From Anaerolineae bacterium (GTDB lineage Bacteria; Chloroflexota; Anaerolineae; SpSt-600), in the NCBI GenBank assembly GCA_042408195.1, contig JBHOQL010000107.1, positions 31,976-95,975 of the forward strand: a stretch of 64,000 bases of DNA. The letters run 5' to 3'. How positions within the stretch are numbered: position 1 is the stretch's first letter; the number at the start of each line of letters is the position of its first letter. Below the pieces are notes generated by a model. It had not been told where the DNA came from. It was given only the letters and a program-made list of their open reading frames with translations, and searched no databases. Made by a program: the position numbers and the translations under genes. Of this stretch, positions 1-19,450 are shown one piece after another.

Positions 1-1
1 C

Positions 2-883
2 GAGCTGTACGGCTTTAAAAGAGGTATCCTGGGGATAGATGCAGGCGGGATGCACACAGTAATGGTCGGGGTTACTGGGGAGAACTTCTTTACCAGCGTA
101 CGGAGCGACATAAGCTTGAACCGGGCCGAGTTCCTCTTGCGAGATTCGGAAAGAATCGCCCGCTGGCTTCCTTACAAGATAGATCAGGAAAAAATAGCCG
201 AAGCAATATTAGAAAAAACTCTTCGCCCCGAAACCATACCCCTTACAAAGGAAGAACTTGCTCTGGAAATGGCCATCCTCAGAGAGGTTCTTCGGGAAGC
301 TTTTTCCACTGCACGGGAACCTCTCAAATCTGCTTTTGGTCCCGAGCTCTCAGTGGACACGATATTACTGACAGGGGGAACTCTGAGTTCAATCCCTGTA
401 ATAGGATGGATGATCTTGGCGGCAATAGATGCCCTTCAGCCTTCTGGGGTAACCATGCTTGTGGTAGACAAAGTAGGCCTCTGTTCCCCATTAGGTTCTC
501 TTGCTTACCTCCATCCTCAAGCTGTCCTTGAAGTTCTGGAACGCGATGCTCTCGTGCCCGTAGGGACTTTGATAGCTCCTCTGGGCATTGCTCCGGAAGG
601 AAGTGTTGCCATGAGAGCCCGCATATCCTTTGATGATGGAAGACATCTTGAGGCAGAAGTCAAATCTGGTGAAATAGAGGTCATACCGCTGGCTCCTGGC
701 CGTAAAGCTTCCATAAGCGTTTCCCTTTCAAAGGGGCTGAGTTTGGGCCCAGCACAGACGGAACGGACTATAGAAGTAAAGGGAGGGCTCGTAGGCATTA
801 TCATGGACCTCAGAGGCCGACCTTTGCCGTTGCCCGCACGGCGGGAGAAAATCCAAAAATGGCTCTGGGGGATGGAAACATGA
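2..883 (+). CDS. ASKHA-fold (actin/HSP70/sugar-kinase-like) ATPase, 5'-truncated at window edge; the reading frame is open from nt 2 (…GILGIDAGGMHTVMVGV…)
   Basis: Phosphate-1-like motif GIDAGG at the very start of the open frame and an LLTGGTLS adenosine-type motif later; a C-terminal beta-rich extension follows. No stop between nt 2 and the listed ATG at 50, so the gene begins upstream of the window. Confidence 0.45.
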   Translation, partial: ELYGFKRGILGIDAGGMHTVMVGVTGENFFTSVRSDISLNRAEFLLRDSERIARWLPYKIDQEKIAEAILEKTLRPETIPLTKEELALEMAILREVLREAFSTAREPLKSAFGPELSVDTILLTGGTLSSIPVIGWMILAAIDALQPSGVTMLVVDKVGLCSPLGSLAYLHPQAVLEVLERDALVPVGTLIAPLGIAPEGSVAMRARISFDDGRHLEAEVKSGEIEVIPLAPGRKASISVSLSKGLSLGPAQTERTIEVKGGLVGIIMDLRGRPLPLPARREKIQKWLWGMET

Positions 884-1917
884 ATTTTGCCAGCACTGTT
901 CGCATAACCCCTTTCTCCTCGATTCAGGTGGAAAGGCGTCTGCCGATACCTGGAGAGGTCCTCGTTCAGCCCGGGGAACCTGTAGAACCTTCCCAAACCA
1001 TCGCTATCGCGGAAGTTAATAGCTGGGTTTGCCTTGACGTTGCCAGGGAAATCGGGGTGAAGGAAAGCGAGTTGGAGCGTTTCCTCAAGAAAAAGTGCGG
1101 GGAAAAAGTTAAAGCCGGAGAAGAGCTCGCCTCCCGAAAAGGTCTCCTACCCTTTACCTTTGTTAGCTATGCCTCTCCTGTATCTGGCCAGGTGGCTGCT
1201 GTTGGCATGGGAATGGTTATTCTGGAGACAACCTCGGGCTCTATAGAGCTCAAAGCCGGCCTGAAGGGCACGGTAAGCAGATTAATCCCATACTATGGAG
1301 CAATCATAGAAACCAAAGGCGCATTGGTGGAAGGTGTGTGGTGCAACGGAAAAGAGAAGGCAGGAATCCTGAAAGTCCTGGGGGACAGAGAAACTCCCCT
1401 TTCTGCCGAAAGCATCCAAGTTTCGGCCAGGGGTTTCATTTTAGTATGTGGGACTATCCGGGATGAGGCTGTCCTTTCCAAAGCCGCTGCAGTTAAGGTG
1501 GACGGTATAATAGCTGGAAGCCTAAGAGCCTCCCTAAAGGATATAGCTTCAGCCATGCCTTACCCCGTAATCCTTACGGAAGGATTTGGAGAGATACCCA
1601 TGAGCACCCCTGCCTTTGAACTTCTGCGCAGTTCTGAAGGTTATGAGGTGGCATTAATTGCTTCACCTCCTTCTGTAATTATATCAGTTCCGGAGGAGAT
1701 AGTGTCTCCCGTTCACATTCTCAGGAAAGAAGAGGCTGGCCTCAAGGTTAAAGTAATCCGAGGGCCTCATAAAGGCTTGTTCGGGGAAATCCTGGAAGTG
1801 GGTCGGCGCGAGACTCTTCTGGAAAGTGGATACCTCGTTCCTTCCGCTCTGGTTCGCTTGGAAAACGGAGCGGAAGTGGAGTTGCCCACCCTCAACCTGG
1901 AAGTGATTGAATCGTAA
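859..1917 (+). CDS. hypothetical protein with a C-terminal KOW-like motif (…GLKVKVIRGPHKGLFGEILEV…)
   Basis: 352-aa ORF overlapping the upstream ASKHA gene by 25 nt, suggesting translational coupling. The C-terminus resembles NusG/L24 KOW motifs (GxxVxVIxGPxxGxxGxI); the central region looks like a hybrid-barrel fold. No confident family assignment. Confidence 0.4.
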   Translation: MALGDGNMNFASTVRITPFSSIQVERRLPIPGEVLVQPGEPVEPSQTIAIAEVNSWVCLDVAREIGVKESELERFLKKKCGEKVKAGEELASRKGLLPFTFVSYASPVSGQVAAVGMGMVILETTSGSIELKAGLKGTVSRLIPYYGAIIETKGALVEGVWCNGKEKAGILKVLGDRETPLSAESIQVSARGFILVCGTIRDEAVLSKAAAVKVDGIIAGSLRASLKDIASAMPYPVILTEGFGEIPMSTPAFELLRSSEGYEVALIASPPSVIISVPEEIVSPVHILRKEEAGLKVKVIRGPHKGLFGEILEVGRRETLLESGYLVPSALVRLENGAEVELPTLNLEVIES

Positions 1918-1928
1918 AGGAGGGAAAA

Positions 1929-2360
1929 ATGTCAATAAAATTGCCGAGGTTATCTTTAGGCGAGGGACGCGATAGGCTTTTCAACTTGCTGGCCCTTGCC
2001 CTGGTGGCTATCCTAATAGTAGGACTATGCTTGCTCGGCTTCGTTGCCCTGTTCATGAGGCCCGGAGTGCGCGCTACTCCAGCTCCAGCCACTCTAACTC
2101 CTCCTTTGGCAAGGCTCACGCCGGTAGCTACCTGGACTTTCACTCCTACTCCAATTTTAACACCCACTCCCACCTTTACCCCAGTACTGGCAGGTATACC
2201 CACTCCAACCCCCACCCCAACCCCTACCCCTCTAGCCCCAACGCCTACTCCTACCTCGACTCCGACAGCTACCCCCCCGACTGGTTACGGATTGCCATTG
2301 GTAGCCGTTGGCGCTGCGCTTTTCTTTCTGATAGTGCTGTTCAGAAAACTGCGCTCCTGA
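1929..2360 (+). CDS. small bitopic membrane protein with a Thr/Pro-rich (TPTPTPTP) low-complexity linker
   Basis: An N-terminal hydrophobic helix (LLALALVAILIVGLCLLGFVALF), about 70 aa of TP/TPxP repeats, then a C-terminal hydrophobic helix followed by a basic tail (LVAVGAALFFLIVLFRKLRS). An RBS (aaggaggg) lies upstream of the ATG. Confidence 0.45.
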   Translation: MSIKLPRLSLGEGRDRLFNLLALALVAILIVGLCLLGFVALFMRPGVRATPAPATLTPPLARLTPVATWTFTPTPILTPTPTFTPVLAGIPTPTPTPTPTPLAPTPTPTSTPTATPPTGYGLPLVAVGAALFFLIVLFRKLRS

Positions 2361-2367
2361 AGGAAAC

Positions 2368-2733
2368 ATGGAAGAATTGATCCTCGAGAACTTGGAAGAG
2401 GGTAAACTTCCCTGCGAGAGAGCTTTTGCCATAGCCCGAAAGCTCAGGGTAAAACCTTTAGCAGTAGGGCAAAAAGCGGATGAAATGGGCATAAAGATAA
2501 GCCGGTGCCAGCTTGGCTTGTTCGGTTACGCGGGTAAAAAGCTTATCGCTCCCATGGCCGAAATCCCTCCCAAGCTAGAAGAAGAGATAAAACGCCGGAG
2601 TAAAGAAGGAAGATTGACATGCGCGGGGGCGTGGGCTATAGCGCGTAAGCTCAACCGGAGCAAGCTTGAAGTTTCAAGCGCTGCCGAAACTCTTGATATC
2701 CACATAATTCAATGCCAACTCGGATGCTTCTAA
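2368..2733 (+). CDS. small protein built from two homologous ~45-aa repeats, each carrying two Cys (C-ERAFAIARKL…KISRCQLGLF and C-AGAWAIARKL…IIQCQLGCF)
   Basis: The internal duplication is evident from the translated ORF. Four to five conserved Cys suggest metal or cluster binding. It is tightly packed between the TP-rich gene and the MoaD-like gene. Confidence 0.45.
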   Translation: MEELILENLEEGKLPCERAFAIARKLRVKPLAVGQKADEMGIKISRCQLGLFGYAGKKLIAPMAEIPPKLEEEIKRRSKEGRLTCAGAWAIARKLNRSKLEVSSAAETLDIHIIQCQLGCF

Positions 2734-2744
2734 AGGAGGTACTT

Positions 2745-3140
2745 ATGCGAGTGGAAGTTTGGCTCTATGGTCCTATAGCGAAATATGGAGGAGGCGAACA
2801 CTACGCCAAAGTGGAATTGGACTTGCCCGAGGGTGCCACTCTGAAAGAAGCGCTGGAAAAACTTGGCATCCCGCTGGAAGAGCGAGGTATAACGTTTATA
2901 AACAGCCAGCTTTCAGCCATGCCAGGCTTTTACCCCGATATGGATGTGCAACTTAAGGAAGGGGACAGAGTCGGAATATTTCATCACAAAAGCATGTGGC
3001 CTTTCCAGTATCGCTTTGGAGCCAAAATGCACCCAGCTTTTGAAGAGGGCTTAAAGAAAGGGGAAGTCGGCTATCTGCGCCATTCCTACCGCCAAATCGA
3101 ACAAACCAATCCTGAAACCAGTAAGGATGAGCAAACTTGA
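2745..3140 (+). CDS. MoaD/ThiS-like beta-grasp sulfur-carrier-like protein lacking the C-terminal Gly-Gly, with a ~50-aa C-terminal extension
   Basis: A perfect RBS aaaggaggt lies 4 nt upstream of ATG 2745, making the 2712 start less likely. MRVEVWLYGPIAKYGGGEHYAKVELDLPEGATLKEALEKL…LKEGDRVGIF matches the MoaD/ThiS pattern (LPEGATv…L…GDeVaIipPvsGG), but it ends …VGIFHHKSMW… with no GG. Confidence 0.5.
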   Translation: MRVEVWLYGPIAKYGGGEHYAKVELDLPEGATLKEALEKLGIPLEERGITFINSQLSAMPGFYPDMDVQLKEGDRVGIFHHKSMWPFQYRFGAKMHPAFEEGLKKGEVGYLRHSYRQIEQTNPETSKDEQT

Positions 3141-3659
3141 GGGTACATAGGATCGAGTCCAATGCTGGGGGAGTGAAGATATCTCCCCCAAAGAGATAAG
3201 AGGAGGGGGTTAAAGGACAAATTCCTGCCATTGCCCGCGGGCGGGACTCTAAACCACAGCGAGCTCGAGGCCTACGGGGGTTAGAAAGATTAAGGCACCG
3301 ATGGGCGCAAACCCTTTGCCAGGGGTTTTCTTAAGAGAGTCCAAGCTGTTGACTTCAGCCATCTGCTTACGAGAGGAGCCCTCCGAGGCAACCCCAAAGC
3401 TAATGGAGGCAGACAAAATCGGGGGAGCAAGGGACAAAGCCCTTGCGGGGGAACTTAAGATGTCTCCTCAAGAAGGCAAAAGAGGGGGTATAGATCCTGG
3501 CTGTCACCTACGATGGGGATCAGTAACCGAAGCGGACCCGAAGCCAATGAGGATAGGCAGAATCTAACGAGGGTGGGTCCTCAGCCTGTCAAAGCCGTGG
3601 ACAGGATGTGAACCCCACTGAAGTAGGCAGAATCGAACACAGGCAGACGAAAGAGAAAA
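3141..3659 (+). promoter_or_regulatory. 520-nt GC-rich, highly structured non-coding leader between the MoaD-like gene and moaA; candidate Moco/Wco riboswitch region
   Basis: No convincing ORF; the listed ORFs at 3249-3437 (-), 3301-3567 (+) and 3589-3777 (-) are short, overlap each other and have no RBS. Contents: many perfect hairpins (e.g. GCAAGGG-ACAAAG-CCCUUGC at ~3425-3445, CCUGUC…GACAGG at ~3586-3608); an imperfect direct repeat, AGGCAGAAUCUAAC at 3556-3569 and AGGCAGAAUCGAAC at 3625-3638 (13/14); and a CUCCGAGGC element reminiscent of Moco RNA motifs. Its position immediately 5' of moaA (ATG 3660) is where Moco riboswitches occur. Confidence 0.3.
3215..3284. repeat. copy 1 of a conserved two-block structured motif (GGrCAAAyTCCTGCCmTTGCCCGCG..GGGAC + variable hairpin + ACGGG(GG)TTAG)
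   Basis: Block A runs 3215-3247 and block B 3274-3284. They are separated by the short palindromic hairpin GCGAGCUCGAGGC. A second copy sits at 60508-60574. Confidence 0.4.
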
Positions 3660-4643
3660 ATGGGTTGCATTGATGCCTACAATCGCTCGATAAGTTACCT
3701 CCGAATATCAGTAACAGACCGGTGCAATCTCCGCTGTATCTACTGCATGCCGAGGCAGGGTGTCCCCTTGAAACCACATCATGAACTCCTCACCTTTGAA
3801 GAAATCGCCAGAATCGTGAAAATTTCCTCCTCTCTGGGTATAACCAAAATCCGCTTGACCGGAGGAGAGCCTCTCGCCCGCCGGGGCATCGTTGAATTGG
3901 TAAGGATGATAGCCTCGATTCCGGGGATTGAGGATCTGGCCATGACCACCAACGGGACTTTGCTACCCCCTCTTGCCCACCAGCTAAAGGAGGCGGGCCT
4001 CCAGAGAGTGAACATAAGCCTTGACACCCTCAAACCTGAGCGCTTTCACCGGATAACAGGGGGAGGAAACCTGGAGGATGTCCTCAGGGGAATAGAAGAA
4101 GCCAGAAAGGCTGGCTTAACCCCCGTTAAAATAAACGTCGTGGTCCTTGACGGGTTCAACCGAGACGAGGTGGTGGACTTTGCCCGTCTCACCTTGCACG
4201 ACGAATGGCACATCCGCTTCATTGAAGTAATGCCATTAGGGCTTGAGGCAGAAAACAACCTGGGGAAATATGTCTCCATGCAGGAGGTTCGGGAAGACAT
4301 TGAAAAGGCTCTCGGGGAGTTGATACCCGCAAATCTGAAAGGCAACGGGCCTGCTCGTTACTTCCGATTAAAAGAAGCTAAAGGCACCATAGGATTCATA
4401 ACCCCTGTGAGCGAGCACTTCTGTTACGAGTGCAACCGTTTACGCCTCACCTCTGACGGCAAGCTGAGGCCTTGCCTTCTATCGGACTTTGAGGTAGACA
4501 TTAAAACAGCCCTGCGTTCCGGGGCTACCGATGAGGAATTGAAGGAGATCCTTAGAGGAGCTGTTCGCCTTAAACCTGAACGCCATCAACTGGAGGCTTC
4601 TTCCTTCCCTACCGGAAGGGCAATGGCAGAAATCGGTGGATAG
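3660..4643 (+). CDS. moaA: GTP 3',8-cyclase MoaA (radical SAM, molybdenum/tungsten cofactor biosynthesis)
   Basis: The N-terminal radical-SAM motif LRISVTDRCNLRCIYCMP and overall MoaA layout (GGEPL, second C-terminal Cys cluster CYECNRLRLTSDGKLRPCL) are present; length is 327 aa. Confidence 0.9.
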   Translation: MGCIDAYNRSISYLRISVTDRCNLRCIYCMPRQGVPLKPHHELLTFEEIARIVKISSSLGITKIRLTGGEPLARRGIVELVRMIASIPGIEDLAMTTNGTLLPPLAHQLKEAGLQRVNISLDTLKPERFHRITGGGNLEDVLRGIEEARKAGLTPVKINVVVLDGFNRDEVVDFARLTLHDEWHIRFIEVMPLGLEAENNLGKYVSMQEVREDIEKALGELIPANLKGNGPARYFRLKEAKGTIGFITPVSEHFCYECNRLRLTSDGKLRPCLLSDFEVDIKTALRSGATDEELKEILRGAVRLKPERHQLEASSFPTGRAMAEIGG

Positions 4644-4657
4644 GAGGGTGGGAGCGT

Positions 4658-5470
4658 ATGGATGAGATCTTCCGGGAGATAACCAGAGCGCTGGAAAGGG
4701 GGGAAAGTGTAGCCCTTGCTACCATCGTAAAAGTTAGCGGGTCTGCCCCGAGGAAGGAGGGCGCTAAAATCCTAATAAAACCCGATGGTTCCACTGTGGG
4801 CACCATAGGGGGTGGACCTTTAGAAAACGCCGTAATCCAAGAAGCTCTCAAGGCTATTACCGAAAAGAAGCCCCGCCTCCTCCACTATGGCCTAAGGGCT
4901 GACTTACATCCCGAAGATCTGGGGATATGCGGTGGAGATGTAGAAGTTTTCGTGGACGTAATTTCACCGACTGAAACCCTCCTGTTAATCGGGGGTGGAC
5001 ATGTTAGTCTAGCTTTAGCCAGGTTGGCAAAGGAGCTAGGCTATCGGATTGTCGTGCTGGATGAGAAGAGCGAATTTGCCTCAAAGGAACGCTTCCCTTT
5101 CGCCGACGATGTGCAAGCTGGTGAGTTGGCTTCGCTCCTTGAAAACTTCCCCATAACTTCCCATACCTGGATAGTCATAGCCACCAGGTCCCACGAGAGC
5201 GATGCTTTGGCTCTGGAAAAGGTCATAAATTCCCCTGCTTCTTACATAGGGCTCCTGGGAAGCCGCCGCAAAGTGGCCCTTATCTTCAAAGGTCTTAGGG
5301 AGAAAGGGGTTGAGGAAAGCCTGCTGGCCAGAGTCTTTGCTCCCGTGGGCTTGGATATAGGGGCTGAAACCCCCGAGGAAATCGCCATAAGCATAATGGC
5401 TGAGATGGTCATGCGAAAGCGAGGGGGAAGTGGAAAACCGCTCAGCAAACTCCAGGAGGGTGAAAAGTGA
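4658..5470 (+). CDS. XdhC/CoxI-family molybdenum (tungsten) cofactor insertion chaperone
   Basis: An N-terminal XdhC_CoxI-type domain (ALATIVKVSGSAPRKEGAKILI…GTIGGGPLE) is followed by the Rossmann-like XdhC C-domain (LLLIGGGHVSLALARLAKELGYRIVVLD). Sits between moaA and a Mo/W enzyme gene. Confidence 0.75.
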   Translation: MDEIFREITRALERGESVALATIVKVSGSAPRKEGAKILIKPDGSTVGTIGGGPLENAVIQEALKAITEKKPRLLHYGLRADLHPEDLGICGGDVEVFVDVISPTETLLLIGGGHVSLALARLAKELGYRIVVLDEKSEFASKERFPFADDVQAGELASLLENFPITSHTWIVIATRSHESDALALEKVINSPASYIGLLGSRRKVALIFKGLREKGVEESLLARVFAPVGLDIGAETPEEIAISIMAEMVMRKRGGSGKPLSKLQEGEK

Positions 5471-6396
5471 GCGCAGGCCCTGTAGCGTTTGTCCTGAGCG
5501 GAGGAGGCAACAGAGGAGCTTTGGAAGTGGGAGCTCTACAGGCTCTCTTTGAACATGGAATAAAGCCCGATATCTTGGTGGGAACTTCCGCTGGAGCTAT
5601 GAATGCTGCCTTCATCGCCACTGACCCTACTTTGGAAGGAGCCTATAGGCTCGGGGAACTGTGGAAGAGCATCCGGAGGGAAGACGTCTTTCCAGGCAAT
5701 AAGTTCACTATGTTCTGGCGCCTTATAACAGGCAAAGACAGCCTCTTCCCAAGCGATCACTTGCGCCGCCTGGTGGAAAAATACATCCCGCCCAACAAGA
5801 AACGTTTTGGCGATTTGAGCATCAAACTTTACATTACTGCAGCCAACCTCAACACTGCTACCCTTTACCTCTTCGGCGATGACCCTGATGCACTGTTGGT
5901 GGATGCGGTGATGGCCAGCGCAGCCCAGCCTGTAACTTTCCCACCACTAGAATACAATGGCTGGCAGTTCGTGGACGGAGGTGTAGTAGCCAATGTCCCA
6001 ATAGAGGTAGCCATAGAAAAAGGAGCAAAGGAAATATATGCCATTGATGTAAGCTACGGTGGACAAGTAGAGCCTCGGGTCAGTGGATTGGTGAACATAG
6101 CCCGGCGTTGCATCACTATAATGCTCTACGAACACCTGCTGGAAGATCTGGAAGATGCTGCCCTCAATCCCGAAATCACCCTCCACCACATCAAAATCAC
6201 AGCCTTTGCGGGCCTTGACCCACAGGACTTTTCCAAGACGGCCGAAATGATAGCCGAAGGCAAGAGGATAGCAGAAGAATACCTCCGCTCGCCTGCTCCC
6301 GGATACCGGCCTGAAATCCGCCCTACACTGGCAATACAGGCCCCGCCTGGCTCTCATCCTTGGCGTCGTAAAAGGAGAAGAACCGCGGATAAATGA
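5467..6396 (+). CDS. patatin-like phospholipase
   Basis: The oxyanion/Gly-rich motif SGGGNRGALEVG, nucleophile elbow GTSAG (GxSxG) and catalytic Asp motif DGGVVANVP are all present. Start overlaps the xdhC-like stop (ATGA-type coupling). Confidence 0.8.
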   Translation: MSAGPVAFVLSGGGNRGALEVGALQALFEHGIKPDILVGTSAGAMNAAFIATDPTLEGAYRLGELWKSIRREDVFPGNKFTMFWRLITGKDSLFPSDHLRRLVEKYIPPNKKRFGDLSIKLYITAANLNTATLYLFGDDPDALLVDAVMASAAQPVTFPPLEYNGWQFVDGGVVANVPIEVAIEKGAKEIYAIDVSYGGQVEPRVSGLVNIARRCITIMLYEHLLEDLEDAALNPEITLHHIKITAFAGLDPQDFSKTAEMIAEGKRIAEEYLRSPAPGYRPEIRPTLAIQAPPGSHPWRRKRRRTADK

Positions 6397-9300
6397 GCAG
6401 CTCTGGAAAGGGTGATCGGGCCTTGAAAGCAGTGAGGATTTCACCTATCTTCTGGCTTTTTCTGATCCTTACCGTAAGCCTCACCCTTCGCCTCTACAAC
6501 ATCAATTGGGATGAATTCCAGCATGCTCACCCCGATGAGCGCTGGATAACCATGGTGGCGGTGAAACTCCGACCGCCCCGGAACCTTCCGGAGGCTTTTA
6601 ACCCTCGCCTTTCACCCTTAAATCCTCTCTACGATCCGGAAACCCAAACTCCGAGGAGCTTCGCCTATGGCCACTTACCCCTCTACATCCTCACAACCCT
6701 GGCTTGGCTCCTTTCGGCCTTAGGCAAGACCTTATTCCCGCAATCTTTCCTGCCCTTGATTACTTCTTACGACTACATAAACCTACTGGGCCGGGTCCTG
6801 TCGGCCCTTTTCGATACCGGAACCGTAGGGCTTATATACCTAACGGGGAGAAAGCTCTACGGGGAAAGGGTGGGATTATGGGCTGCCGCCTTCGTGGCTT
6901 TGACCGTTTCCCATATCCAGCTGGCTCACTATTACGCCTTTGACCCCGTTGCTGCTTTTTTTGTGGTGCTTTCCGTCTATTTCTCTGTGAAACTAGCCGA
7001 GGGGGGCTCTTGGAAAGAAGCTCTCTTGGCAGGAGCAGCTGCAGGACTAGGGGTTTCATCAAAATTTAGTGCTATCCCCGTGACGGCGGCTGTCGCTATC
7101 GCCTGTTTGCTCGCTCCAGGAAAGGGGCGTTTCCGGTTTGGACTTCTGATTCTTTCGGCTCTGGCCGCCTTCCTGGCCTTTGCCCTGACCTCCCCCTTCG
7201 CCTTATTGGACCTTAGGTTATACCTCATCCAGATCGGAGAACAAGGCCAGATGGTCCGAGGCATACTTGATTATCCTTACACTAGGCAGTACCGAGGGAC
7301 AGTGCCTTTTGCCTATCACATTGAGCAACAACTCCGCTGGGGTATGGGCTGGGCTCTTGGGCTGGCGAGCTTCATCGGCTTTGCCTGGGCAGTGATTCGA
7401 TTGCTGCTTAGGAGAAGCCCCCCTGGCGAGATCGCAATCATGGCTTGGGTCTTGCCCTATTTCCTTATTAACGGCTCCTTCATGGTCAAGTTCATGCGTT
7501 ATATGCTCCCTATTTTGCCCTTCCTCTGTCTTTTCGGTGCCCTATTCCTTGAGCATCTTTCGGCAAAAACCCGTCGGTTGCCCCTTGCTCTTCTCGTCCT
7601 AATCCCCACTGCCCTCTGGGCGCTGGCTTTCGTGAAGGGAGTTTACGGTCACACTCACCCCTGGATCGAGGCCTCGCGCTGGATCTACCGGAACATCCCC
7701 CCTGGTTCCACCATTGCCGTGGAACACTGGGACGACGAATTGCCCAAGCCTCTCGAAGATGAGCCATACCCTGGTTACAGGCACCTCGTCCTCCCCCTTT
7801 ACGAAGAGGACACTCGTGAGAAATTCGCCATCATAAAGGAAACCCTCCGCCAAGCCGATTACATAGTTATTGCCAGCAACCGGCTTTACGGTTCAATCCC
7901 TCGCTTGCCCTTCCGTTACCCAATGACCACCCGCTATTACGAACTGCTCTTTTCGGAAAAACTGGGCTTTGTGAAAGTGGCCGAATTCTCCTCCTACCCC
8001 CGCCTTGGTCCATGGGTTATCCCCGATGATGGGGCTGATGAAAGCTTTACCGTTTACGACCACCCTAAGCCTATGATCTTCAAGAAAATCCGAGATCTGA
8101 CCGATGAGGAATGGGAGAAACTGCTCGGTGGGCTCTGGGAAGAAGCAATTCCTGGCCATCTGGGAGGACCACCCAATGAAAAGCGGAAGCCTTCGCTACT
8201 TCTGAATACTCCTGTGGACAAGCTGCCCGTGGTAGACGATTACCGATGGAACCATATCGCCTCTTCCAACCCTTTCCTTGCGGCTATGACTTGGTGGCTT
8301 GTCTTAGAGGTTATCGGCATTGCTGCTTGGCCTCTGGCTTCCCTCCTCTTCCGACGGGTTTACCTGAGAGGTTACCCCCTAGCTAAGGCATTGGGATTGG
8401 TGCTGCTCGCTTACGTAAACTGGCTTGGGGCAAGCTTGCACTTCACTCAGAATAGAACCAGCACAATTGTTATAATCCTGCTCCTTATGGCTGTTGGAGG
8501 CTTATGGTGCTTCTGGAAGAACCGACGGGAAATTTCCGGCTTTTATCGCACAAACCTCAAAGGGATTTTCCTGAGCGAGCTCCTCTTTCTTGCCAGCTAT
8601 CTCGCCTTCGTTTTCCTGCGCTTCCTGAACCCAGATCTATGGCATCCATGGAATGGTGGGGAGAAACCCATGGAGCTGGCCTTCCTCAATGCCATCCTCA
8701 AGAGCGCTTACTTTCCACCTTACGACCCCTATTACGCTGGAGGTTACATAAACTATTACTACTACGGCCTTTACATGGTCTCGGTTCTGGTTAAACTTAC
8801 GGGCATAACCCCCACCGTTGCTTTCAACTTAGCTATTCCTACTCTGTTTGCCCTCACCTTCTCCGGTGCTTTCTCCATCGGAGCCACAATTGGGGGCAGG
8901 ATTAGCATGGGTCTCTTGAGCGCTTTTTTCGTAACCCTTCTGGGCAACCTGGCACCCATCCGCAATTTCGCCGAAGAATTGCTCAAGGGAAACCTGCAGC
9001 AGGCTCTTGTCGCTTTTGATTACTGGGCACCGAGCCGCGTTATTCCTTACACCATTAACGAATTCCCCTTCTGGAGCTTCCTCTTTGCCGACCTGCACCC
9101 CCATGTTGTGGCAATGCCTTTGGATATTCTCTTCCTAATTCTTGTTATGGAGGCATTCCTTGGAGGGATTGAGGGTTGGCACAGAAAAGAGCTCGTCTTG
9201 ACGCAGATCCTGACTTTGGGAACGGTGGCTGCGGTTAACACGTGGAATTTCCCAACCTTGACGTTCGTCGCCGTCCTCACCCTCCTTTTCACCCTTTACC

Positions 9301-10484
9301 GGGAAAGGAGGAAGTGGGGAACCCTGGCTTTAGTCCCAATCCTTCCCCTTTCAGCTCTTGTCCTATTTTCCCCTTTTTTCCTCTCTTACAAGCCTGTAAG
9401 TGCGGGCATAGGGCTTGTCCGCCAGCAGACTGAATGGTTTCCCTTCGTAACCTTTTGGGGTTTTTTCCTCGCGCTCTCAATCCTGGCAGGCTTCGGTTCC
9501 CTTTCGCTTAAGAGCATTACGAGGTCTAAAGGCCTCATGGCTTTCTTGGCTGTGGTCGCCATGGCCTTCGCCATCAGGCGCCTGTGGACCCCGCTGACGA
9601 TACTCCTGGCTGCTGCTCCCTTCATCCTCGGAAGCAGCGAATGGCAGATGAGGCATAGCGGAGGGGAAACGGATGAAAAACATGTCCTTCGCCTCTTCTC
9701 TGCCCTTCTGGTGTTGGCTGGCTTTGCAGTGCTCATAGGCTGTGAGTTCTTCTACTTCAGGGATTTCCTCCATGGAAGCGAATATTATAGGATGAACACC
9801 GTTTTTAAGTTCTATGTCCAAGCCTGGGTCTTGCTGGGTCTTGGGTTAGCTTCTTACTTTCAGGTCCCTTTTGAAGGGAAAGGGAAAGGATGGGAAGTGG
9901 CCAGGGTCTTCGTCCTGCTCCTTCTGGTTTTGTCTTCCATCTTCTTGATTTACGGAACGATCGCCAGGGTGCGCGACAGGTTCCCAGGGGCTAAACCTCC
10001 TCTTGGGACCCTGGACGGCATGGAGTTCATGCGTTATGGTTCTTTCTTCTGGCCCGATGAGGCGCATCCCATTTACCTCCGCTACGATTACGAAGCTATC
10101 CGTTGGCTACTGGAAAACACCAGGGGAACACCGGTCCTGGCTGAGGCCCCTATCGGTTATTACCGGGAGTTCGGAGTGAGGGTTGCAAGTTTCACGGGCT
10201 TGCCCACCCTGCTGGGCATGCACCAGAGCGAACAACGCTATGGTGACCAGGTTGGAAAGAGGTCAGAAGAAGCATGGCAGTTCTTTGCCTCCACTGATAA
10301 GAATTTAACGCTGAAGCTTGTGAGAAAGCTCAGAATCGGATATATTTATATTGGACAGTTGGAAAGAATCCTCTTTTCCCCCGAATCCCTGGCCAAGTTT
10401 GAGGAGTTGGCCAAGGAAGGCTGGCTCAAAGAAGTTTTCCGCAATGAAGGCACTGTAATTTATAGCACTTTCCTTGCACCTTAG
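6393..10484 (+). CDS. 1363-aa polytopic membrane protein; N-terminal half is GT-C-like (ArnT/PMT-family glycosyltransferase-like), C-terminal half is a second multi-TM domain
   Basis: More than 20 predicted hydrophobic helices. The first extracytoplasmic loop carries the DE motif typical of GT-C glycosyltransferases (NWDEFQHAHPDERW). Start overlaps the patatin stop. Confidence 0.6.
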   Translation: MSSSGKGDRALKAVRISPIFWLFLILTVSLTLRLYNINWDEFQHAHPDERWITMVAVKLRPPRNLPEAFNPRLSPLNPLYDPETQTPRSFAYGHLPLYILTTLAWLLSALGKTLFPQSFLPLITSYDYINLLGRVLSALFDTGTVGLIYLTGRKLYGERVGLWAAAFVALTVSHIQLAHYYAFDPVAAFFVVLSVYFSVKLAEGGSWKEALLAGAAAGLGVSSKFSAIPVTAAVAIACLLAPGKGRFRFGLLILSALAAFLAFALTSPFALLDLRLYLIQIGEQGQMVRGILDYPYTRQYRGTVPFAYHIEQQLRWGMGWALGLASFIGFAWAVIRLLLRRSPPGEIAIMAWVLPYFLINGSFMVKFMRYMLPILPFLCLFGALFLEHLSAKTRRLPLALLVLIPTALWALAFVKGVYGHTHPWIEASRWIYRNIPPGSTIAVEHWDDELPKPLEDEPYPGYRHLVLPLYEEDTREKFAIIKETLRQADYIVIASNRLYGSIPRLPFRYPMTTRYYELLFSEKLGFVKVAEFSSYPRLGPWVIPDDGADESFTVYDHPKPMIFKKIRDLTDEEWEKLLGGLWEEAIPGHLGGPPNEKRKPSLLLNTPVDKLPVVDDYRWNHIASSNPFLAAMTWWLVLEVIGIAAWPLASLLFRRVYLRGYPLAKALGLVLLAYVNWLGASLHFTQNRTSTIVIILLLMAVGGLWCFWKNRREISGFYRTNLKGIFLSELLFLASYLAFVFLRFLNPDLWHPWNGGEKPMELAFLNAILKSAYFPPYDPYYAGGYINYYYYGLYMVSVLVKLTGITPTVAFNLAIPTLFALTFSGAFSIGATIGGRISMGLLSAFFVTLLGNLAPIRNFAEELLKGNLQQALVAFDYWAPSRVIPYTINEFPFWSFLFADLHPHVVAMPLDILFLILVMEAFLGGIEGWHRKELVLTQILTLGTVAAVNTWNFPTLTFVAVLTLLFTLYRERRKWGTLALVPILPLSALVLFSPFFLSYKPVSAGIGLVRQQTEWFPFVTFWGFFLALSILAGFGSLSLKSITRSKGLMAFLAVVAMAFAIRRLWTPLTILLAAAPFILGSSEWQMRHSGGETDEKHVLRLFSALLVLAGFAVLIGCEFFYFRDFLHGSEYYRMNTVFKFYVQAWVLLGLGLASYFQVPFEGKGKGWEVARVFVLLLLVLSSIFLIYGTIARVRDRFPGAKPPLGTLDGMEFMRYGSFFWPDEAHPIYLRYDYEAIRWLLENTRGTPVLAEAPIGYYREFGVRVASFTGLPTLLGMHQSEQRYGDQVGKRSEEAWQFFASTDKNLTLKLVRKLRIGYIYIGQLERILFSPESLAKFEELAKEGWLKEVFRNEGTVIYSTFLAP

Positions 10485-10492
10485 GAGGATAT

Positions 10493-10972
10493 ATGCTGGA
10501 AAAAGAAGTGGGCAAGCTCCTGAGGCAGCTTAGGTTGACCCTCGCCGTAGCTGAATCCTGCACTGGTGGCCTCCTGGCTCACCGCATAACCAACGTCCCT
10601 GGAAGCTCTTATTACTTCATCGGCGGAGTTGTGGCCTACGCAAACCAGGTAAAAAGTTCCCTGCTCAAGGTAGGCGAAGAAACTCTGAACACCAAAGGGG
10701 CCGTAAGTGAGGAGACAGCCCTCCAAATGGCCAGAGGAGTGCGGGAACTCCTGGGGACCGATATCGGCATCGGGATAACAGGGATTGCGGGACCGGGAGG
10801 TGGAACCCCTTCTAAACCTGTCGGACTTGTGTATGTGGCCCTTTCCGCCCCCGACTATGAAGAGTGCCGCCAGTTTAAATGGGAAGGCCATCGGATTCAG
10901 AACAAGAGACTCTCAACAGAAGCTGCTCTGGAAATGCTCTTACAATACCTGAGACAACGGAGCGGGGATTGA
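10493..10972 (+). CDS. pncC: CinA C-terminal domain protein / nicotinamide-nucleotide amidohydrolase PncC
   Basis: [40 protein letters not shown] is the conserved CinA_C signature; 159 aa. Confidence 0.8.
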
Positions 10973-12735
10973 TAATCAAAGTTGAACCTTCTAAAGATGC
11001 CACCCTGTTGGAAATCACCCGCACTAAAGGCATTGCCCTGATAGCGCCATGCGGTGGACGGGGCAAGTGCGGCCGTTGTATAGTCCGAATCGTTGAAGGT
11101 GAGGTCTCCCCACCTACTCACGCTGATCAACGATTTCTCTCCTTAGTACAACTCGCTCGTGGATACCGACTGGCTTGTCAGGCTAGGCCTCTTTCCCTTT
11201 GTCACATTTACATACCCCCCGAGTCCTTATCTTTCTCCCAGCGAATCCAGCTCGAAGGCCAAGAAGTTCCGGCAAAGCCCGAACCTCCTGTCCGGGCGTA
11301 TCATATAACCCTTTCCCCGCCTTCCTTACAGGACCTTCGCTCCGATGCTGAGAGGATTGTCCAGGCCCTCGAAAGCCTTTACGGGATAAAGGTTTCTCTG
11401 GATTTCTCTTTCCTCCGCGAGCTCCCTGAAAAGCTCCGGGGCCAGAACTGGCAAGGGAAAGTTGTAGTCCGCGGGGACGAGGTCATTTCCCTCCTCCCTC
11501 CGGAAGCTTCCCTTCTGGGCTTGGCCATAGACCTGGGAACCACCAAAATCGCCTTTTACCTTGTAGACCTTGAAAGTGGCCGGACCCTATCAGTGCGGGG
11601 TATTGTGAACCCTCAGAGCTCATACGGCGAAGACATTATCTCCCGGATAACCTATGCTCTGCAAAAACCGGAGGGGGCGACCGAGCTTCAGAAGATTGTT
11701 ATAGGGAGTATAAATGAGGTGACAAAAGAGATGTGCACCGAGATAGGGGCAGACCCCTCCCAGGTGGTTGAATCGGTAGTGGTGGGGAACACCGCCATGC
11801 ACCACTTGCTGCTTGGGTTGCCAGTCCGCCAACTCGGATACGCTCCTTACGTTCCGGCCGTCCAGAGCGCCTTAGAGGTAAAGGCGCGGGAACTGGGCCT
11901 GAACTTTGCTCCCGGGGCTGTGGTTTATTTCCCGCCCCTCATCGCTGGATTTGTCGGAAGTGACCACGTGGCAGCCCTCCTGGCCACGGGTTTTAGCGAG
12001 GTAGAAGGTCCAGCTCTGCTCTTGGACATCGGCACTAATACCGAAATATGCCTGGCCCACGGGGGCAGATTGATAAGCCTTTCCTGTGCTTCCGGCCCTG
12101 CTTTTGAGGGAGCTCATATTTCTTGCGGGATGAAAGCCTCTCCGGGAGCCATTGAAAGTTTCTCCTTAGACGACGATGGGGTTAAATTCCAGACCATAGA
12201 TGACCTACCCCCGGTAGGGCTGTGTGGGTCAGGTATTCTGGACGTGGTGGCGCAACTCCGAAAAGCTGGAATAATAGATCCCAGTGGACGGATGGGTACG
12301 CATCCTCTGGTGCGTAGGGTGGATGGTCAGGCTGCCTTTGTAATTGTGGAGGAAACCCCTGAACAGCGCCCAATCCTCTTAACTCAGAAGGATGTAAGAG
12401 AAATCCAACTGGCCAAAGGGGCTATCCGTACGGGCATCGAAGTGCTCCTCAGGGAAACGAACTCTAACCCGGAAGATGTCCGAGAAGTAGTGCTAGCCGG
12501 AGCCTTTGGCACATACCTTAGAACCGAAAGCGCTGTGGAGATCGGGATGTTCCCCAGGATACCTCTGGAACGTTTCCGCCAGGTGGGGAACGCCGCCGGG
12601 ACTGGGGCGACGGCCATGCTCATTTCTACCTGGATGAGAGCTGAAGCTGAAAAGCTGGCCCGGAGAATTGAATACATTGAACTTGCCGCCGTCCCCGACT
12701 TTGCCCAGCTATTTGCCAAAGCAATGCTCCTTTGA
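10969..12735 (+). CDS. 2Fe-2S ferredoxin + ASKHA ATPase fusion (DUF4445 / RACo-like reductive activator of corrinoid proteins)
   Basis: A plant-type ferredoxin Cys cluster ([10 protein letters not shown]…C) precedes a long ASKHA-like domain ([19 protein letters not shown]…). The listed ATG at 10879 lies inside pncC; an in-frame TTG at 10969 overlapping the pncC stop (gaTTGa) is the more plausible start. Start uncertain. Confidence 0.65.
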
Positions 12736-12862
12736 CTGATTTTGACGGAAGCTGCATTCCGTGGTAGAGGTTTTCCAGAAAGCAAAACAAGTATTTCAGG
12801 CAGATGAAGCTCAGCATGCTCTCAAAACGATGGCGACAAAATCTGTATTAGCGAGGTGTAAG

Positions 12863-14671
12863 ATGGCATACGTTTACCATGGCCGATTGCTGCTAGTAGA
12901 CCTTAACGAGTGTTCCATTCAAGAAGTCCCGGTGGAGGAAAAAGACGTGAGGGAATTCCTCATGGGGAGTGGACTTGGCGCTGAGCTCTTCCGCCGGGAT
13001 GAAGCTTACCGAAAAGCTCCCCTTTCCCCTCAGAGCCCCCTTTATGTTATAAATGGTTTGCTCACAGGTTCTTTCATCCCGACTGCCTCCAAGACGAGTT
13101 TCTGTGCCCGCTCGCCCTTAACGAAAATCTGGTGCGAGGCGACAGTCGGGGGATATTTCGGTTCAATGCTCCGCTTTGCTGGTTACGATGGGATAATTTT
13201 CACGGGAAAAGCTGAAAAACCCCTTTACCTCTGGGTAACTGAAGGCAAGGCTGAGTTGCGCGATGCTTCACGCCTGTGGGGGCTGGATACCTACCGCACA
13301 GCAGAGGCCATCAGAGCCGAAACGCACCCCAAGGCCCAAGTGGCTGCCATTGGTCCTGCAGGGGAGAATCAGGTTTTCACTGCCTCCGTAATGATCGGCG
13401 GCCTCGATGGGAGGGCTGCGGGGAGAGGTGGCATGGGGGCAGTGATGGGATCCAAAAATCTCAAGGCCATAGCTGCTTTCGGGACCGCGCGCCTCCGTTA
13501 CTACAACGAGCAGGGCCTCAAGGAAGAGATCCGGCGAGTTAATCCCAGAATAAAGGAGAACACCGTCGCCCTTGGGATGTGGGGGACGGCAGGGGGTGTT
13601 CTCAGAGCTGAGGCCTACGGTGATTTCCCCCTGAAGAACTGGCGTGAAGGGAGCTGGCCCGACGGAGCCGCAAAAATCTCCGGTCAACGCATTCGGGAGA
13701 CTATCTTCGTAAGGGATTACCGCTGCTTTGCTTGCCCCATCGCCTGCGGGAAAGACGTGAAACTCAAAAGAGGCGACCAAGAGGTCATAGTATCGGGACC
13801 AGAATACGAAACGGTGGCCGGGTTTGGGGGAATGTGTCTCATAGACAACCTTGAGGCCATAGCTGAGGCTAACGATCTATGCAATCGCCTGGGCCTTGAT
13901 ACTATTTCCGTATCGGCAACCATAGCTTTTGCTATAGAAGCCTTTGAAAGGGGACTCATCACCGAAAAGGACACAGGAGGATACGCCCTTCAGTGGGGCG
14001 ACCCGGAAGGCGTTCTGAGCTTAATAGAGGACATAGCTTACAAGAGGGGACTTGGAGAACTTTTAGCCATGGGTGTAAAGCGAGCAGCTGAAGCCCTGGG
14101 CCCCCAAGCTCAAGAATTTGCTGTCCACGTCAAGGGCATGGAAGTGCCATACCATGACCCGAGGGCCTTCACAGGGATGGCCCTCAACTACGCCACTGCC
14201 AACCGCGGAGCCTGCCATCTGGAATCCCTCACGTACTGGGTAGGCTACGGAGTGAGAATAGATGAACTCTACATTCCTGAGGATTATCACCCTCATTCTT
14301 CCCGAGGCAAAGCCAGGATGGTGGTGGACTTTCAGAATTACATGACTCTCTACAACGCTCTGGGACTTTGCAAGTTTGCCGGAAGAGGCAATCTTCCGCC
14401 CAGTCTCCTGGCCCGTTGGCTCAACCTTGCGCTGGGGTGGGAGGTTACGGGAGAAGAACTGATGGCCACGGGCGAGCGCCTCTTCAATCTCAAAAGGGCT
14501 TTAAATGTGGAAATGGGGATCACCCGGTCCGATGATACCCTACCCTCTCGCTTGCTGAAAGAGGCCAGGCCTTCCGGCGGAGCGGCCGGAGTACTCCCTG
14601 AACTTGAACTCATGCTGGAGGAATACTACCAGATCCGAAAGTGGGATAAAAGAGGAAGACCTTTTATTTAA
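12863..14671 (+). CDS. aor: aldehyde:ferredoxin oxidoreductase (tungsten/molybdopterin enzyme, AOR family)
   Basis: AOR-family N-domain (MAYVYHGRLLLVDLNECSIQEVPV…) and C-domain are present, about 600 aa. ATG 12863 is preceded by gaggtg; the listed 12761 start lacks an RBS. Co-localised with moaA and xdhC. Confidence 0.85.
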   Translation: MAYVYHGRLLLVDLNECSIQEVPVEEKDVREFLMGSGLGAELFRRDEAYRKAPLSPQSPLYVINGLLTGSFIPTASKTSFCARSPLTKIWCEATVGGYFGSMLRFAGYDGIIFTGKAEKPLYLWVTEGKAELRDASRLWGLDTYRTAEAIRAETHPKAQVAAIGPAGENQVFTASVMIGGLDGRAAGRGGMGAVMGSKNLKAIAAFGTARLRYYNEQGLKEEIRRVNPRIKENTVALGMWGTAGGVLRAEAYGDFPLKNWREGSWPDGAAKISGQRIRETIFVRDYRCFACPIACGKDVKLKRGDQEVIVSGPEYETVAGFGGMCLIDNLEAIAEANDLCNRLGLDTISVSATIAFAIEAFERGLITEKDTGGYALQWGDPEGVLSLIEDIAYKRGLGELLAMGVKRAAEALGPQAQEFAVHVKGMEVPYHDPRAFTGMALNYATANRGACHLESLTYWVGYGVRIDELYIPEDYHPHSSRGKARMVVDFQNYMTLYNALGLCKFAGRGNLPPSLLARWLNLALGWEVTGEELMATGERLFNLKRALNVEMGITRSDDTLPSRLLKEARPSGGAAGVLPELELMLEEYYQIRKWDKRGRPFI

Positions 14672-18889: not shown

Positions 18890-19438
18890 TTACCGCCCGG
18901 TCCGGGCGGTTATGGCGCTGTAGGCAATCATCAAGATGGGCACCAGGATAACACCATTGACGACGTCCGTCAAGCCTGCGGGCAAAAAGTAGCCAACAAG
19001 GGCTGTCCTGAGGTCAATCCCGGAGACCCATATCTCCGAAAGTGATGCTAAGAGCATTCCCACAATCGCGCCCAAGGCAGAAAAGATATCGGCAATGACT
19101 AAGGACCGAGTGCTGCGGAAATCCCGAATTAGAAGCCCCGCGAATCCCGGGATCAGCCCCATGATGCCGTTGCCCAGGTCCCACCAAAACCAGAAGCCCC
19201 AGCCGGAGAGGGCATCACCAATGATGTTCCCCAAGAAACCGCTGATAAAGCCCACCCATGGCCCAAAGGCAACGCCGAAGAACATGGGGATACAAACGGC
19301 AGGACGAAAGGCTATGTTGCCTGCGGCGGGAAGGGCTAACATGTTTGTGGCAAAGGAGAGGACGCCATAGAGAGCCGCCCCTAGTGCCGCAAGGACTATT
19401 TAGCGAGTCCCAAAGGCATACCACTTTTTCTCTCGCAT
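18890..19438 (-). pseudogene. ECF transporter substrate-specific (S) component interrupted by an in-frame TAA after codon 12 (MREKKWYAFGTR*IVLAALGAALYGVLSFATN MLALPAAGN…)
   Basis: ATG 19438 sits 12 nt after the ecfA-A stop and has an RBS (aaagaggttacc). The frame then hits TAA at 19402-19400 and continues open, in the same frame, through a canonical S-component first TM helix to the listed ORF 19342-18890. The substrate class is not recognisable from the sequence. Confidence 0.55.
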
Positions 19439-19450
19439 GGTAACCTCTTT

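Follow-up and report, generated by a model that had tools for sequence, protein, structure and literature searches.

Five tightly packed genes upstream of moaA in an Anaerolineae genome: the end of an unnamed conserved cluster beside a putative tungsten/molybdenum-cofactor operon

Do five co-directional genes packed tightly in front of moaA work together as one module? The question is raised by positions 2..3140 of a 64,000-nucleotide (nt) stretch of Anaerolineae DNA, hereafter the window (contig JBHOQL010000107.1, assembly GCA_042408195.1, positions 31,976-95,975), where five open reading frames (ORFs), g1 to g5, all read in the same direction on the + strand of 1..3140. A sequence-only reading of this DNA had proposed that they could form a single undescribed cofactor-maturation or protein-modification module. 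As one unit, the five-gene set is not a real module. Our preferred explanation, to which we assign a probability of about 75%, is that two independent functional units, separated by 7 nt, abut here in a single small clade of Anaerolineae, namely module A, which ends with g1–g3, and module B, which begins with g4 and g5 and continues into moaA and an XdhC-family gene. The features concerned are the following.

g1: 2..883, + strand; 3' part (293 of 571 codons) of a gene for a GlmL/MutL-like ASKHA-fold ATPase; module A
g2: 880..1917, + strand; 345-amino-acid (aa) protein with barrel-sandwich, swivelling and KOW domains; module A
g3: 1929..2360, + strand; 143-aa Thr/Pro-rich protein with an LPXTG-like tail; module A
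g4: 2368..2733, + strand; 121-aa tandem-duplicated four-Cys protein; first gene of module B
g5: 2745..3140, + strand; 131-aa MoaD/ThiS-like beta-grasp protein without Gly-Gly; module B
g5–moaA spacer: 3141..3659, + strand; 519 nt, T-poor
moaA (GTP 3',8-cyclase): 3660..4643, + strand; TIGR02666, Radical_SAM and Mob_synth_C; module B
XdhC-family maturation factor: 4658..5470, + strand; XdhC_CoxI and XdhC_C; module B
tungsten-type aldehyde:ferredoxin oxidoreductase (AOR): 12761..14671, + strand; AFOR_N (E 1.6e-67) and AFOR_C (E 7.7e-133)

The evidence for two units comes from their distribution across genomes. We retrieved 80 genome loci by similarity to g2 with a narrow alignment, as the broad g2 alignment was too diverse for a locus scan, searched them with all window proteins and clustered every ORF, using our own ORF calls. 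The resulting set is nearly all Anaerolineae, and thus biased towards this group, and includes Longilinea arvoryzae KOME-1 and a metagenome-assembled genome of Anaerolinea thermophila. Homologues of g4 and g5 were present in only 6 of the 80 loci, the Logan contig L001 and L005–L009, which are the six closest to the window with g2 identities of 52-100%; a search with the g4 profile agreed, and four of these six also carry moaA. In the other ~72 g2 loci g4, g5 and moaA were absent within 10 kb of module A. Likewise, matches to g1 or g2 were found in only 3 of 80 loci collected with g4, and elsewhere g4 and g5 accompany moaA, wtpABC or AOR without g1–g3. In Bathyarchaeota BA1, in a marine metagenome contig (probably Marinisomatota) and in a third contig, g1 and g2 lie adjacent with a DUF6754 gene nearby and without g3, and no molybdenum-cofactor genes were detected near g1–g2 in these three distant contigs. 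Based on this locus distribution, together with the distant lineages devoid of molybdenum-cofactor genes, we regard module A as independent of g4–g5. Conserved co-occurrence is thus lacking for the set as a whole, and the proposal of one five-gene module is not upheld.

The tight packing itself was borne out. The gaps g1–g2, g2–g3, g3–g4 and g4–g5 measure -4, 11, 7 and 11 nt, and Shine-Dalgarno-like sites precede g2 (GGGGGA), g3 and g5 (both AGGAGG-like) and, in a weaker form, g4 (AGGAA). Pattern scans of 1..4000 yielded no sigma70-like promoter and a count of terminator-like sites no higher than in shuffled sequence, and co-transcription of the five genes is plausible on these sequence features. 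All five genes are real, because each has many conserved homologues. The g1 gene is truncated by the window edge; its complete 571-aa product was read from L001, which is 99.85% identical to the window across 3377 nt and carries at least two more co-directional genes upstream of g1. A unit of exactly five genes is therefore not what the locus contains, as at least two further upstream genes on L001, and four to five across relatives, lie beyond the window edge. For g2 the ORF proposed previously stands, its length of 352 aa less so. A start at 880 overlaps the g1 stop codon as ATGA and yields a 345-aa product equal to database protein P0001 (from a 98.9-kb contig), with the same call on L001, whereas the alternative ATG at 859 yields the 352-aa form, for which no exact database match exists; the start at 880 is most likely. 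The g5 start at 2745 corresponds to that of database protein P0241 and agrees with the amino termini of its homologues.

Could the five genes nevertheless form one operon-encoded module for the maturation or modification of a cofactor or protein, with g1 as a chaperone and g4 and g5 as carriers feeding MoaA, XdhC and AOR? Tight packing without a detectable internal promoter or terminator speaks for it, and some further observations count against two independent units in the same way. The A–B junction (g3–g4) is kept in all six loci that carry both modules, down to a g2 identity of 52%, and there may be read-through transcription and some selected coupling of the two modules in this clade. Furthermore, the named proteins of the GlmL family, to which g1 belongs, are B12-mutase accessory proteins; GlmL-type ATPases are by annotation chaperones of cofactor enzymes, which would suit a cofactor theme. 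Set against this are the ~72 g2 loci without g4, g5 or moaA in their surroundings, the contexts of g4 and g5 that lack g1–g3 and the distant module-A loci without molybdenum-cofactor genes, and we consider a single module very improbable. With two units as the preferred explanation, the locus is best summarised as a putative operon for the tungsten/molybdenum cofactor that includes two accessory genes not yet characterised and lies beside an unnamed conserved cluster. For annotation, the lesson is that tight packing is insufficient to call a module, as here it joins units of differing evolutionary distribution.

Module A is a cluster of seven to eight genes that starts upstream of the window, with g1–g3 forming its 3' end. 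Among the 80 g2 loci, the two genes directly upstream of g1 were found in 75, g1 in 78 and g2 in 78, with a g1 homologue directly upstream of g2; further upstream, co-directional families comprise DUF6754 (PF20539; 55 loci), a ~215-aa protein with multiple transmembrane (TM) segments (57 loci) and a ~95-aa protein (29 loci). The upstream members, located at 3-2256 in L001, 4739-8295 in L005, 8137-11807 in L087 and 7021-10853 in L083, are listed below.

small protein: ~95-100 aa; module A
DUF6754 (PF20539) protein: probably cytoplasmic domain between two TM segments; module A
multi-TM protein: ~205-270 aa, with a conserved YRAFR..R...E motif; module A
zinc-ribbon/TM protein: TM segment, ~220-aa probably extracytoplasmic domain, second TM segment; in Anaerolineae additionally amino-terminal zinc ribbons and a long linker rich in acidic residues and Pro; module A
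multi-TM protein: ~230 aa; module A

The order of these genes is permuted between phyla. Homologues of both membrane proteins encoded directly upstream of g1 were identified in Bathyarchaeota BA1 and in the marine contig with E-values of 1e-37 to 1e-49, and inspection of the distant module-A loci revealed a similar small protein and multi-TM protein. Two points temper the picture of a membrane-linked g1–g2 cluster: the membrane topologies were assigned by hydrophobicity and the positive-inside rule only, and one 6.2-Mb contig carries g2 without an adjacent g1. Across Pfam, NCBIfam, PADLOC, PDB sequences and PDB folds, module A is unnamed beyond PF13941 and PF20539. Profile searches of two of its membrane families against solved structures returned nothing significant; in the literature searched no paper mentioned DUF6754 or PF13941, and a query for the combination of ASKHA and KOW gave nothing relevant. 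Module A thus represents a conserved set common to Bacteria and Archaea, and it is experimentally approachable, as the cultured Longilinea arvoryzae and Anaerolinea thermophila carry it.

At the level of the individual proteins the domain assignments of the sequence-only reading held, namely an ASKHA/MutL-type g1, an internally duplicated, cysteine-containing g4 and a beta-grasp g5 devoid of Gly-Gly, as did its statement that the middle three proteins fit no nameable family: g2, g3 and g4 have no Pfam or NCBIfam match above cut-off. The full-length g1 from L001 matches PF13941 (MutL/GlmL, ASKHA fold) with 138 bits over residues 10-460 (cut-off 27), and the window fragment alone reaches 34.2 bits. 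The equivalog level of GlmL is not attained, with 49.1 bits against a cut-off of 475 for NF040745 and 27.7 against 204 for TIGR01319, and g1 carries an extra beta-rich domain of ~110 aa at its carboxy terminus. As PF13941 is matched with 138 bits and the GlmL equivalog with only 49 of 475, g1 is by its profile scores a distant member of the GlmL/MutL superfamily with an extra carboxy-terminal domain. ASKHA nucleotide-binding motifs are retained (DWGSFRTK in the L001 protein, DAGGMHT in the window), and a further stretch, LLTGGT, may represent the adenosine motif. The g1 protein probably hydrolyses ATP. A single-sequence search of g1 against solved structures gave chance-level matches only. The conserved neighbour families of module A that we scanned (DUF6754, the ~215-aa and ~95-aa families, both upstream membrane families, g2, the g3-like family, the Trans_reg_C/STAND regulator and the phosphoglucomutase) include no B12-dependent mutase or dehydratase.

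The g2 protein is soluble and shows no family-level match in Pfam, NCBIfam or the sequences of solved structures. An AlphaFold2 model built from 31 homologues, with a predicted local distance difference test (pLDDT) score of 88, comprises three parts: an amino-terminal barrel-sandwich hybrid, a central swivelling beta/beta/alpha domain and a carboxy-terminal KOW/SH3-like domain. The amino terminus matches NQRA_N and RnfC_N weakly, whereas the KOW domain is clearly recognised both by profile and by its KOW/SH3-like barrel fold. The central domain contains the invariant g2 signature EGFG, and the alignment reveals no evident conserved His or Cys and no carrier Lys of the lipoyl/biotinyl type. 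A single-sequence search against solved structures remained at chance level, including a non-significant match to D-lysine 5,6-aminomutase (E 1.1).

The third gene differs from g1 and g2 in its narrower distribution. Its product consists of an amino-terminal hydrophobic segment, a Thr/Pro-rich spacer, the motif TPPTG, a carboxy-terminal hydrophobic segment and an RKLRS tail. The tail of g3-like relatives reads LP[ASTDNQ]TGFADEVGLPGL, followed by ~20 hydrophobic residues and RRLR, with a family consensus of ALPxTGFADEVGLPGL-hydrophobic-ARRLR, and the window clade carries a degenerate TPPTG or TPQTG in place of LPxTG. The LPXTG-anchor profile TIGR01167 detected the g3-like gene of L011 (4260-4823) with 16.1 bits (cut-off 15.9) and matched four other relatives with 8.9-14.4 bits over the expected carboxy-terminal stretch; it did not detect the window g3 with its TPPTG motif. 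A g3-like gene lies directly 3' of g2 in 53 of the 80 g2 loci, and none is present in the archaeal and other non-Anaerolineae bacterial versions of module A examined. By this distribution g3 appears to be an Anaerolineae-specific member of module A, and the tail of its family suggests a sortase-anchored surface protein whose link with module A is confined to Anaerolineae.

For g1–g5 we infer all biochemical steps proposed here and in the following. In module A, g1 would hydrolyse ATP, and g2 would serve as a soluble three-domain adaptor that docks g1 on a platform of four membrane proteins. At the membrane the two proteins could then perform conformational work, either a chaperone-like loading or reactivation, as suggested by the resemblance to GlmL and DdrA, or an envelope or transport task, as suggested by g3 and the membrane partners. 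A more specific version of the latter would make module A a cell-envelope or surface-protein system that assembles, exports or anchors an envelope component, including g3 in Anaerolineae. The four conserved membrane proteins, one of them with a predicted extracytoplasmic domain, the sortase-type tail of g3 and its position directly after g2 are in line with this proposal, as is a phosphoglucomutase-family gene that 42 loci carry downstream in the opposite orientation. However, the lack of g3 in the archaeal and other bacterial versions implies that it is not a core substrate, the conserved members include no glycosyltransferase, flippase, sortase or secretion component, and to our knowledge this ATPase family has only soluble chaperone roles. 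We therefore consider a dedicated envelope system unlikely.

In 33 loci, module A is followed on its own strand by a gene whose product combines a STAND/AAA NTPase with a Trans_reg_C DNA-binding domain of OmpR type (e.g. L012 9331-10791); two such genes are often present. An anti-phage defence system was considered as well and rejected, as PADLOC gave no match for g1–g5 or for the four upstream module-A members.

On the other side of the 7-nt junction, module B contains two genes of recognised cofactor families. The moaA product reaches the equivalog level of TIGR02666 (396 bits, cut-off 284), and both XdhC Pfam domains score above cut-off in the downstream gene, which is nearest to NF045664 (XdhC_rel_AOR; E 2.6e-81) with 273.6 bits, below the cut-off of 350. 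Based on these family assignments and on the gene contexts of g4 and g5 described below, it is plausible that g4, g5, moaA and the XdhC-like gene constitute an operon for tungsten/molybdenum-cofactor synthesis and AOR maturation, with the AOR at 12761..14671 as its likely client. The earlier suggestion of an undescribed cofactor-maturation module accordingly survives in part. It holds for g4, which precedes moaA or wtpABC in unrelated lineages, and for g5, which is found beside AOR or fused to MoaD; it does not hold for g1–g3.

Beyond the XdhC-like gene, whose stop codon is overlapped by a patatin-like phospholipase gene (5467-6396; a patatin gene is also found 3' of xdhC in the relative L005), the window encodes a 1363-aa protein (6393-10484) of seemingly strongly hydrophobic sequence. 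The AOR gene follows a RACo-type corrinoid activase (10879-12735) in a Wood-Ljungdahl-type neighbourhood, to which an ACS/CODH beta subunit (21993-24278, - strand), a CODH/prismane-family protein (25035-27023, - strand) and a formate-tetrahydrofolate ligase (27552-29333, - strand) also belong.

The 519-nt spacer between g5 and moaA had been taken for a structured leader of moaA, and our data do not support this assignment. Rfam gave no match in 3050..3750 at gathering score or at E<=10, including the molybdenum-cofactor (Moco) riboswitch RF01055, which was likewise not found in the relatives L005, L006, L008 and L009; the predicted folding resembles that of shuffled sequence (z = -0.38 for the minimum free energy). 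The spacer measures only 17 nt in L005 and 36 nt in L009, against 399 nt in L006 (12228-12626), 579 nt in L098 (4704-5282) and 692 nt in L008. All long spacers are T-poor (about A.30, G.31, T.16), and the window spacer resembles them in composition without significant sequence similarity. The spacer of L008 (8103-8743) comprises 4.2 tandem copies of a 149-nt unit with many G-runs and GC hairpins; the window spacer contains no tandem repeat, no tRNA or tmRNA was found within it, and no further copy exists in the window or the fetched loci except in the near-identical L001. Each of the candidate identities, riboswitch, tRNA/tmRNA, dispersed repeat and tandem repeat, was thus searched for and rejected. 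The spacer is a variable, insertion-prone stretch and not a conserved riboswitch. A T-box leader (122 bits) is present in the related contig L005 at 19258-19505, unconnected with the five genes.

For g5, all beta-grasp matches fall below cut-off: ThiS with 19.4 bits (22.5), RnfH with 20.6 bits (23.7) and Ub-Mut7C with 16.5 bits (23). The family is nevertheless well populated, with at least 1610 clusters of homologues that carry the NCBI name 'MoaD/ThiS family', some with a precomputed PF02597 or PF14451 assignment. The protein ends in ...TSKDEQT, without Gly-Gly, and possesses a conserved extension of ~35-45 aa, SMWPFQYRFG...H.Y. Among the best 120 relatives, WPFQYR is found in 118 and is followed by 23-47 residues; a GG end occurs in 3 and is missing from 117. 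As Gly-Gly is lacking, g5 is not expected to carry sulfur itself, and a protein-modification module, the other possibility raised previously, lacks its carrier as well as any E1-like or JAB gene. Fusions of a canonical MoaD ending in ...PP[IV][GA]GG with a following g5-type domain account for 26 of the best 120 relatives, and an AOR gene (AFOR_N/AFOR_C) lies beside g5 relatives in all three independent contexts (P0257, P0355, P0353). One context shows an AOR gene, a radical-SAM/SPASM gene and a MoaD-g5 fusion, another a g5-type gene, an AOR gene and a canonical MoaD gene. Because of the MoaD fusions and the adjacency to AOR, it is likely that g5 acts together with MoaD or AOR when the cofactor is made or inserted. 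In the window itself the AOR gene is not adjacent to g5 but shares its strand at a distance of 9.6 kb downstream. In other Chloroflexota, 360-590 nt of non-coding sequence separate a g5-type gene from a downstream AOR gene (L177 6397-6756; L181 6406-6993; L182 4752-5321).

The g4 protein arose by an internal tandem duplication of a ~55-aa unit, whose two repeats are 46% identical (E 2e-13). It contains four invariant cysteines (C16, C47, C85, C116), two CQLG motifs and a nearly invariant fifth cysteine. We found 1181 representative clusters at E<=1e-3, no match to g4 in Pfam, NCBIfam or PDB sequences, and nothing significant with the family profile against solved structures; g4 thus belongs to a new family without Pfam model or structure. 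Among 80 metagenome loci collected with the g4 profile, moaA lies downstream of g4 on the same strand in 13, with a gap of 3-6 nt in eight, g5 in between in three, a ~114-nt gap in one and transporter genes in between in one. The arrangement g4-moaA-moaC, with g4 located 4 nt upstream of moaA, recurs in divergent genomes. In L100 (3896-8254) the order is g4-wtpA-wtpB-wtpC-moaA, with wtpA directly after g4 (NCBIfam tungstate-transporter names), and in L105 (3547-7530) wtpABC follows g4 after a 479-nt gap; this gene context links the g4 family both to tungsten and to the synthesis of the pterin. Where g4 heads a moaA operon, a sigma70-like promoter precedes it (L112, L117, L128, L116, L149, L168, L089, L093; within the ~60 nt upstream) in the form TTGCC or TTGCT, a spacing of about 17 nt and TAGAAT, TACAAT or TAAAAT, often with TGCGG right before the -10 element (extended -10).

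No sigma70-like site precedes the window g4, which starts 7 nt after g3. Nor is the link of the g4 family to tungsten/molybdenum genes strict. Most of the 80 g4 loci contain other neighbours, e.g. peptidase M24, amidohydrolase, 2-hydroxyacid dehydrogenase or GNAT genes, and a Pfam survey of neighbours other than moaA and g5 revealed upstream no family beyond lineage-specific synteny (peptidase M24 in 9 of 49) and a mixture downstream. Rare long members of the family carry at the amino terminus HycI, a protease of hydrogenase maturation, or a fragment of a HypB/CobW-like GTPase or of HemD (P0477, P0508, P0392); they may be true fusions or artefacts of assembly or gene calling.

As g4 is the leading gene of moaA and wtpABC operons, its role may be that of a sensor or of a carrier, two alternatives within the explanation by two units. 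In the first, g4 would be a transcription factor that uses its cysteines to sense tungstate/molybdate, the pterin cofactor or redox state and autoregulates cofactor and tungstate-uptake operons instead of a Moco riboswitch, which was found neither in the window nor in its relatives. Its place as first gene behind the sigma70-like promoter in g4-moaA-moaC, and as first gene also in g4-wtpABC-moaA, fits such a function, and g4 is often solitary in varied contexts, as regulators are. In the structural model (pLDDT 89) g4 forms two helix-turn-helix-like units, each in the helix-strand-helix-helix-strand order of a winged helix; comparison with PDB structures only gave weak fold matches to homeodomains, FtsK-gamma, MarR and CzrA, and weak profile matches to RacA and YusO were also obtained. 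The window copy has an isoelectric point of 9.1, and the median over the family is 8.2. However, the would-be recognition helices (VGxxADxxGI, VSxAAEALGI) are poor in basic and polar residues for DNA contacts, the most conserved motif, CQLGxF, is positioned as a ligand site and not for operator contact, and no shared operator-like palindrome was found upstream of g4 genes, where only promoter-like elements appear. We therefore advance the regulator tentatively, at clearly less than even odds.

In the second alternative, g4 would bind a metal, an iron-sulfur (Fe-S) cluster or the cofactor as an accessory protein that does not bind DNA, acting as carrier, store or electron/cluster donor for MoaA or for metal insertion. 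The four invariant cysteines with the nearly invariant fifth in a duplicated unit, the probable translational coupling to moaA over 3-6 nt and the fusions to metal-centre maturation proteins (HycI, HypB/CobW-like GTPase) argue for it. On the other hand, no known cluster-binding motif was recognised, neither ferredoxins nor molbindins were matched in sequence or fold, many family members are distant from any cofactor gene, and the fusions are few and possibly artefactual. We regard an accessory role as a serious possibility that nonetheless falls somewhat short of an even chance.

Taken together, MoaA in module B would produce cyclic pyranopterin monophosphate, the product of its family. The g4 protein would bind a metal, Fe-S cluster or pterin cofactor through its four cysteines and thereby act either as a sensor and regulator of tungsten/molybdenum-cofactor genes or as a small carrier or accessory factor. 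The g5 protein would be a MoaD-like partner, not itself carrying sulfur, in the maturation of canonical MoaD and AOR, and the XdhC-like protein would, by family analogy, hold and insert the finished cofactor, so that the operon would serve the nearby AOR. In a still more far-reaching proposal, g1 and g2 would belong to an undescribed membrane machine with DUF6754, three more membrane proteins and the small protein, conserved from Anaerolineae to Bathyarchaeota, which would provide a novel ATP-driven membrane activity, and at the same time g4 would found a new class of cysteine-based tungsten/molybdenum-cofactor sensors or carriers in the niche of the Moco riboswitch; the conjunction of both is speculative, and we would sooner bet against it than on it. 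Module B brings two uncharacterised proteins into the maturation of AOR and of the tungsten/molybdenum cofactor. One is a widespread family, with more than 1000 sequence clusters, of small four-Cys proteins heading moaA and tungstate-transporter operons, the other a MoaD-like protein without Gly-Gly that in many Chloroflexota is fused to a true MoaD. Either could explain how cofactor supply for tungsten enzymes is controlled or assisted without a Moco riboswitch.

Comparison with known systems delineates what is particular to each component. The known systems nearest to g1 are ASKHA-fold proteins that act as chaperones for B12 enzymes: GlmL/MutL, which serves glutamate (methylaspartate) mutase, and two related reactivases, EutA and DdrA. 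In contrast to these, the partners of g1 are four membrane proteins and g2, with no B12 mutase or dehydratase conserved nearby, and relative to GlmL it bears the additional ~110-aa domain and scores far under the equivalog cut-off (49 vs 475). The g2 protein weakly resembles the amino-terminal barrel-sandwich of NqrA/RnfC, whereas it lacks their flavin and Fe-S domains, and it shares the KOW domain of NusG/Spt5, whereas it lacks the NGN domain; its central swivelling domain with EGFG occurs in neither of these families. The g5–moaA spacer is similar to the Moco riboswitch RF01055 only in position, as a long untranslated stretch before moaA, while it has no covariance-model match, folds in an ordinary manner and is not kept in relatives. 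ModE-type regulators and Mop/molbindin proteins, which are encoded beside mod/wtp and moa genes, are comparable to g4 in genomic position and perhaps in a helix-turn-helix-like fold; searches of Pfam, NCBIfam and PDB sequences and folds identified neither a Mop domain nor a ModE-type winged helix in g4, which has four cysteines rather than an oxyanion pocket. For g5, the known counterparts are the AOR-linked MoaD genes (Iyer, Burroughs and Aravind 2006, PMC1779556) and aorD and aorE, a pair of MoaD-like genes within the Aromatoleum aromaticum aor operon (PMC6365974). Like these, g5 is MoaD/ThiS-like, and its relatives lie beside AOR, a radical-SAM gene of tungsten enzymes and canonical MoaD; unlike these, it lacks the carboxy-terminal Gly-Gly needed for a thiocarboxylate, and the window copy stands before moaA and not before AOR. 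With its conserved extension, g5 thus appears, from sequence and gene context, to be a variant of the described AOR-linked MoaD-like genes.

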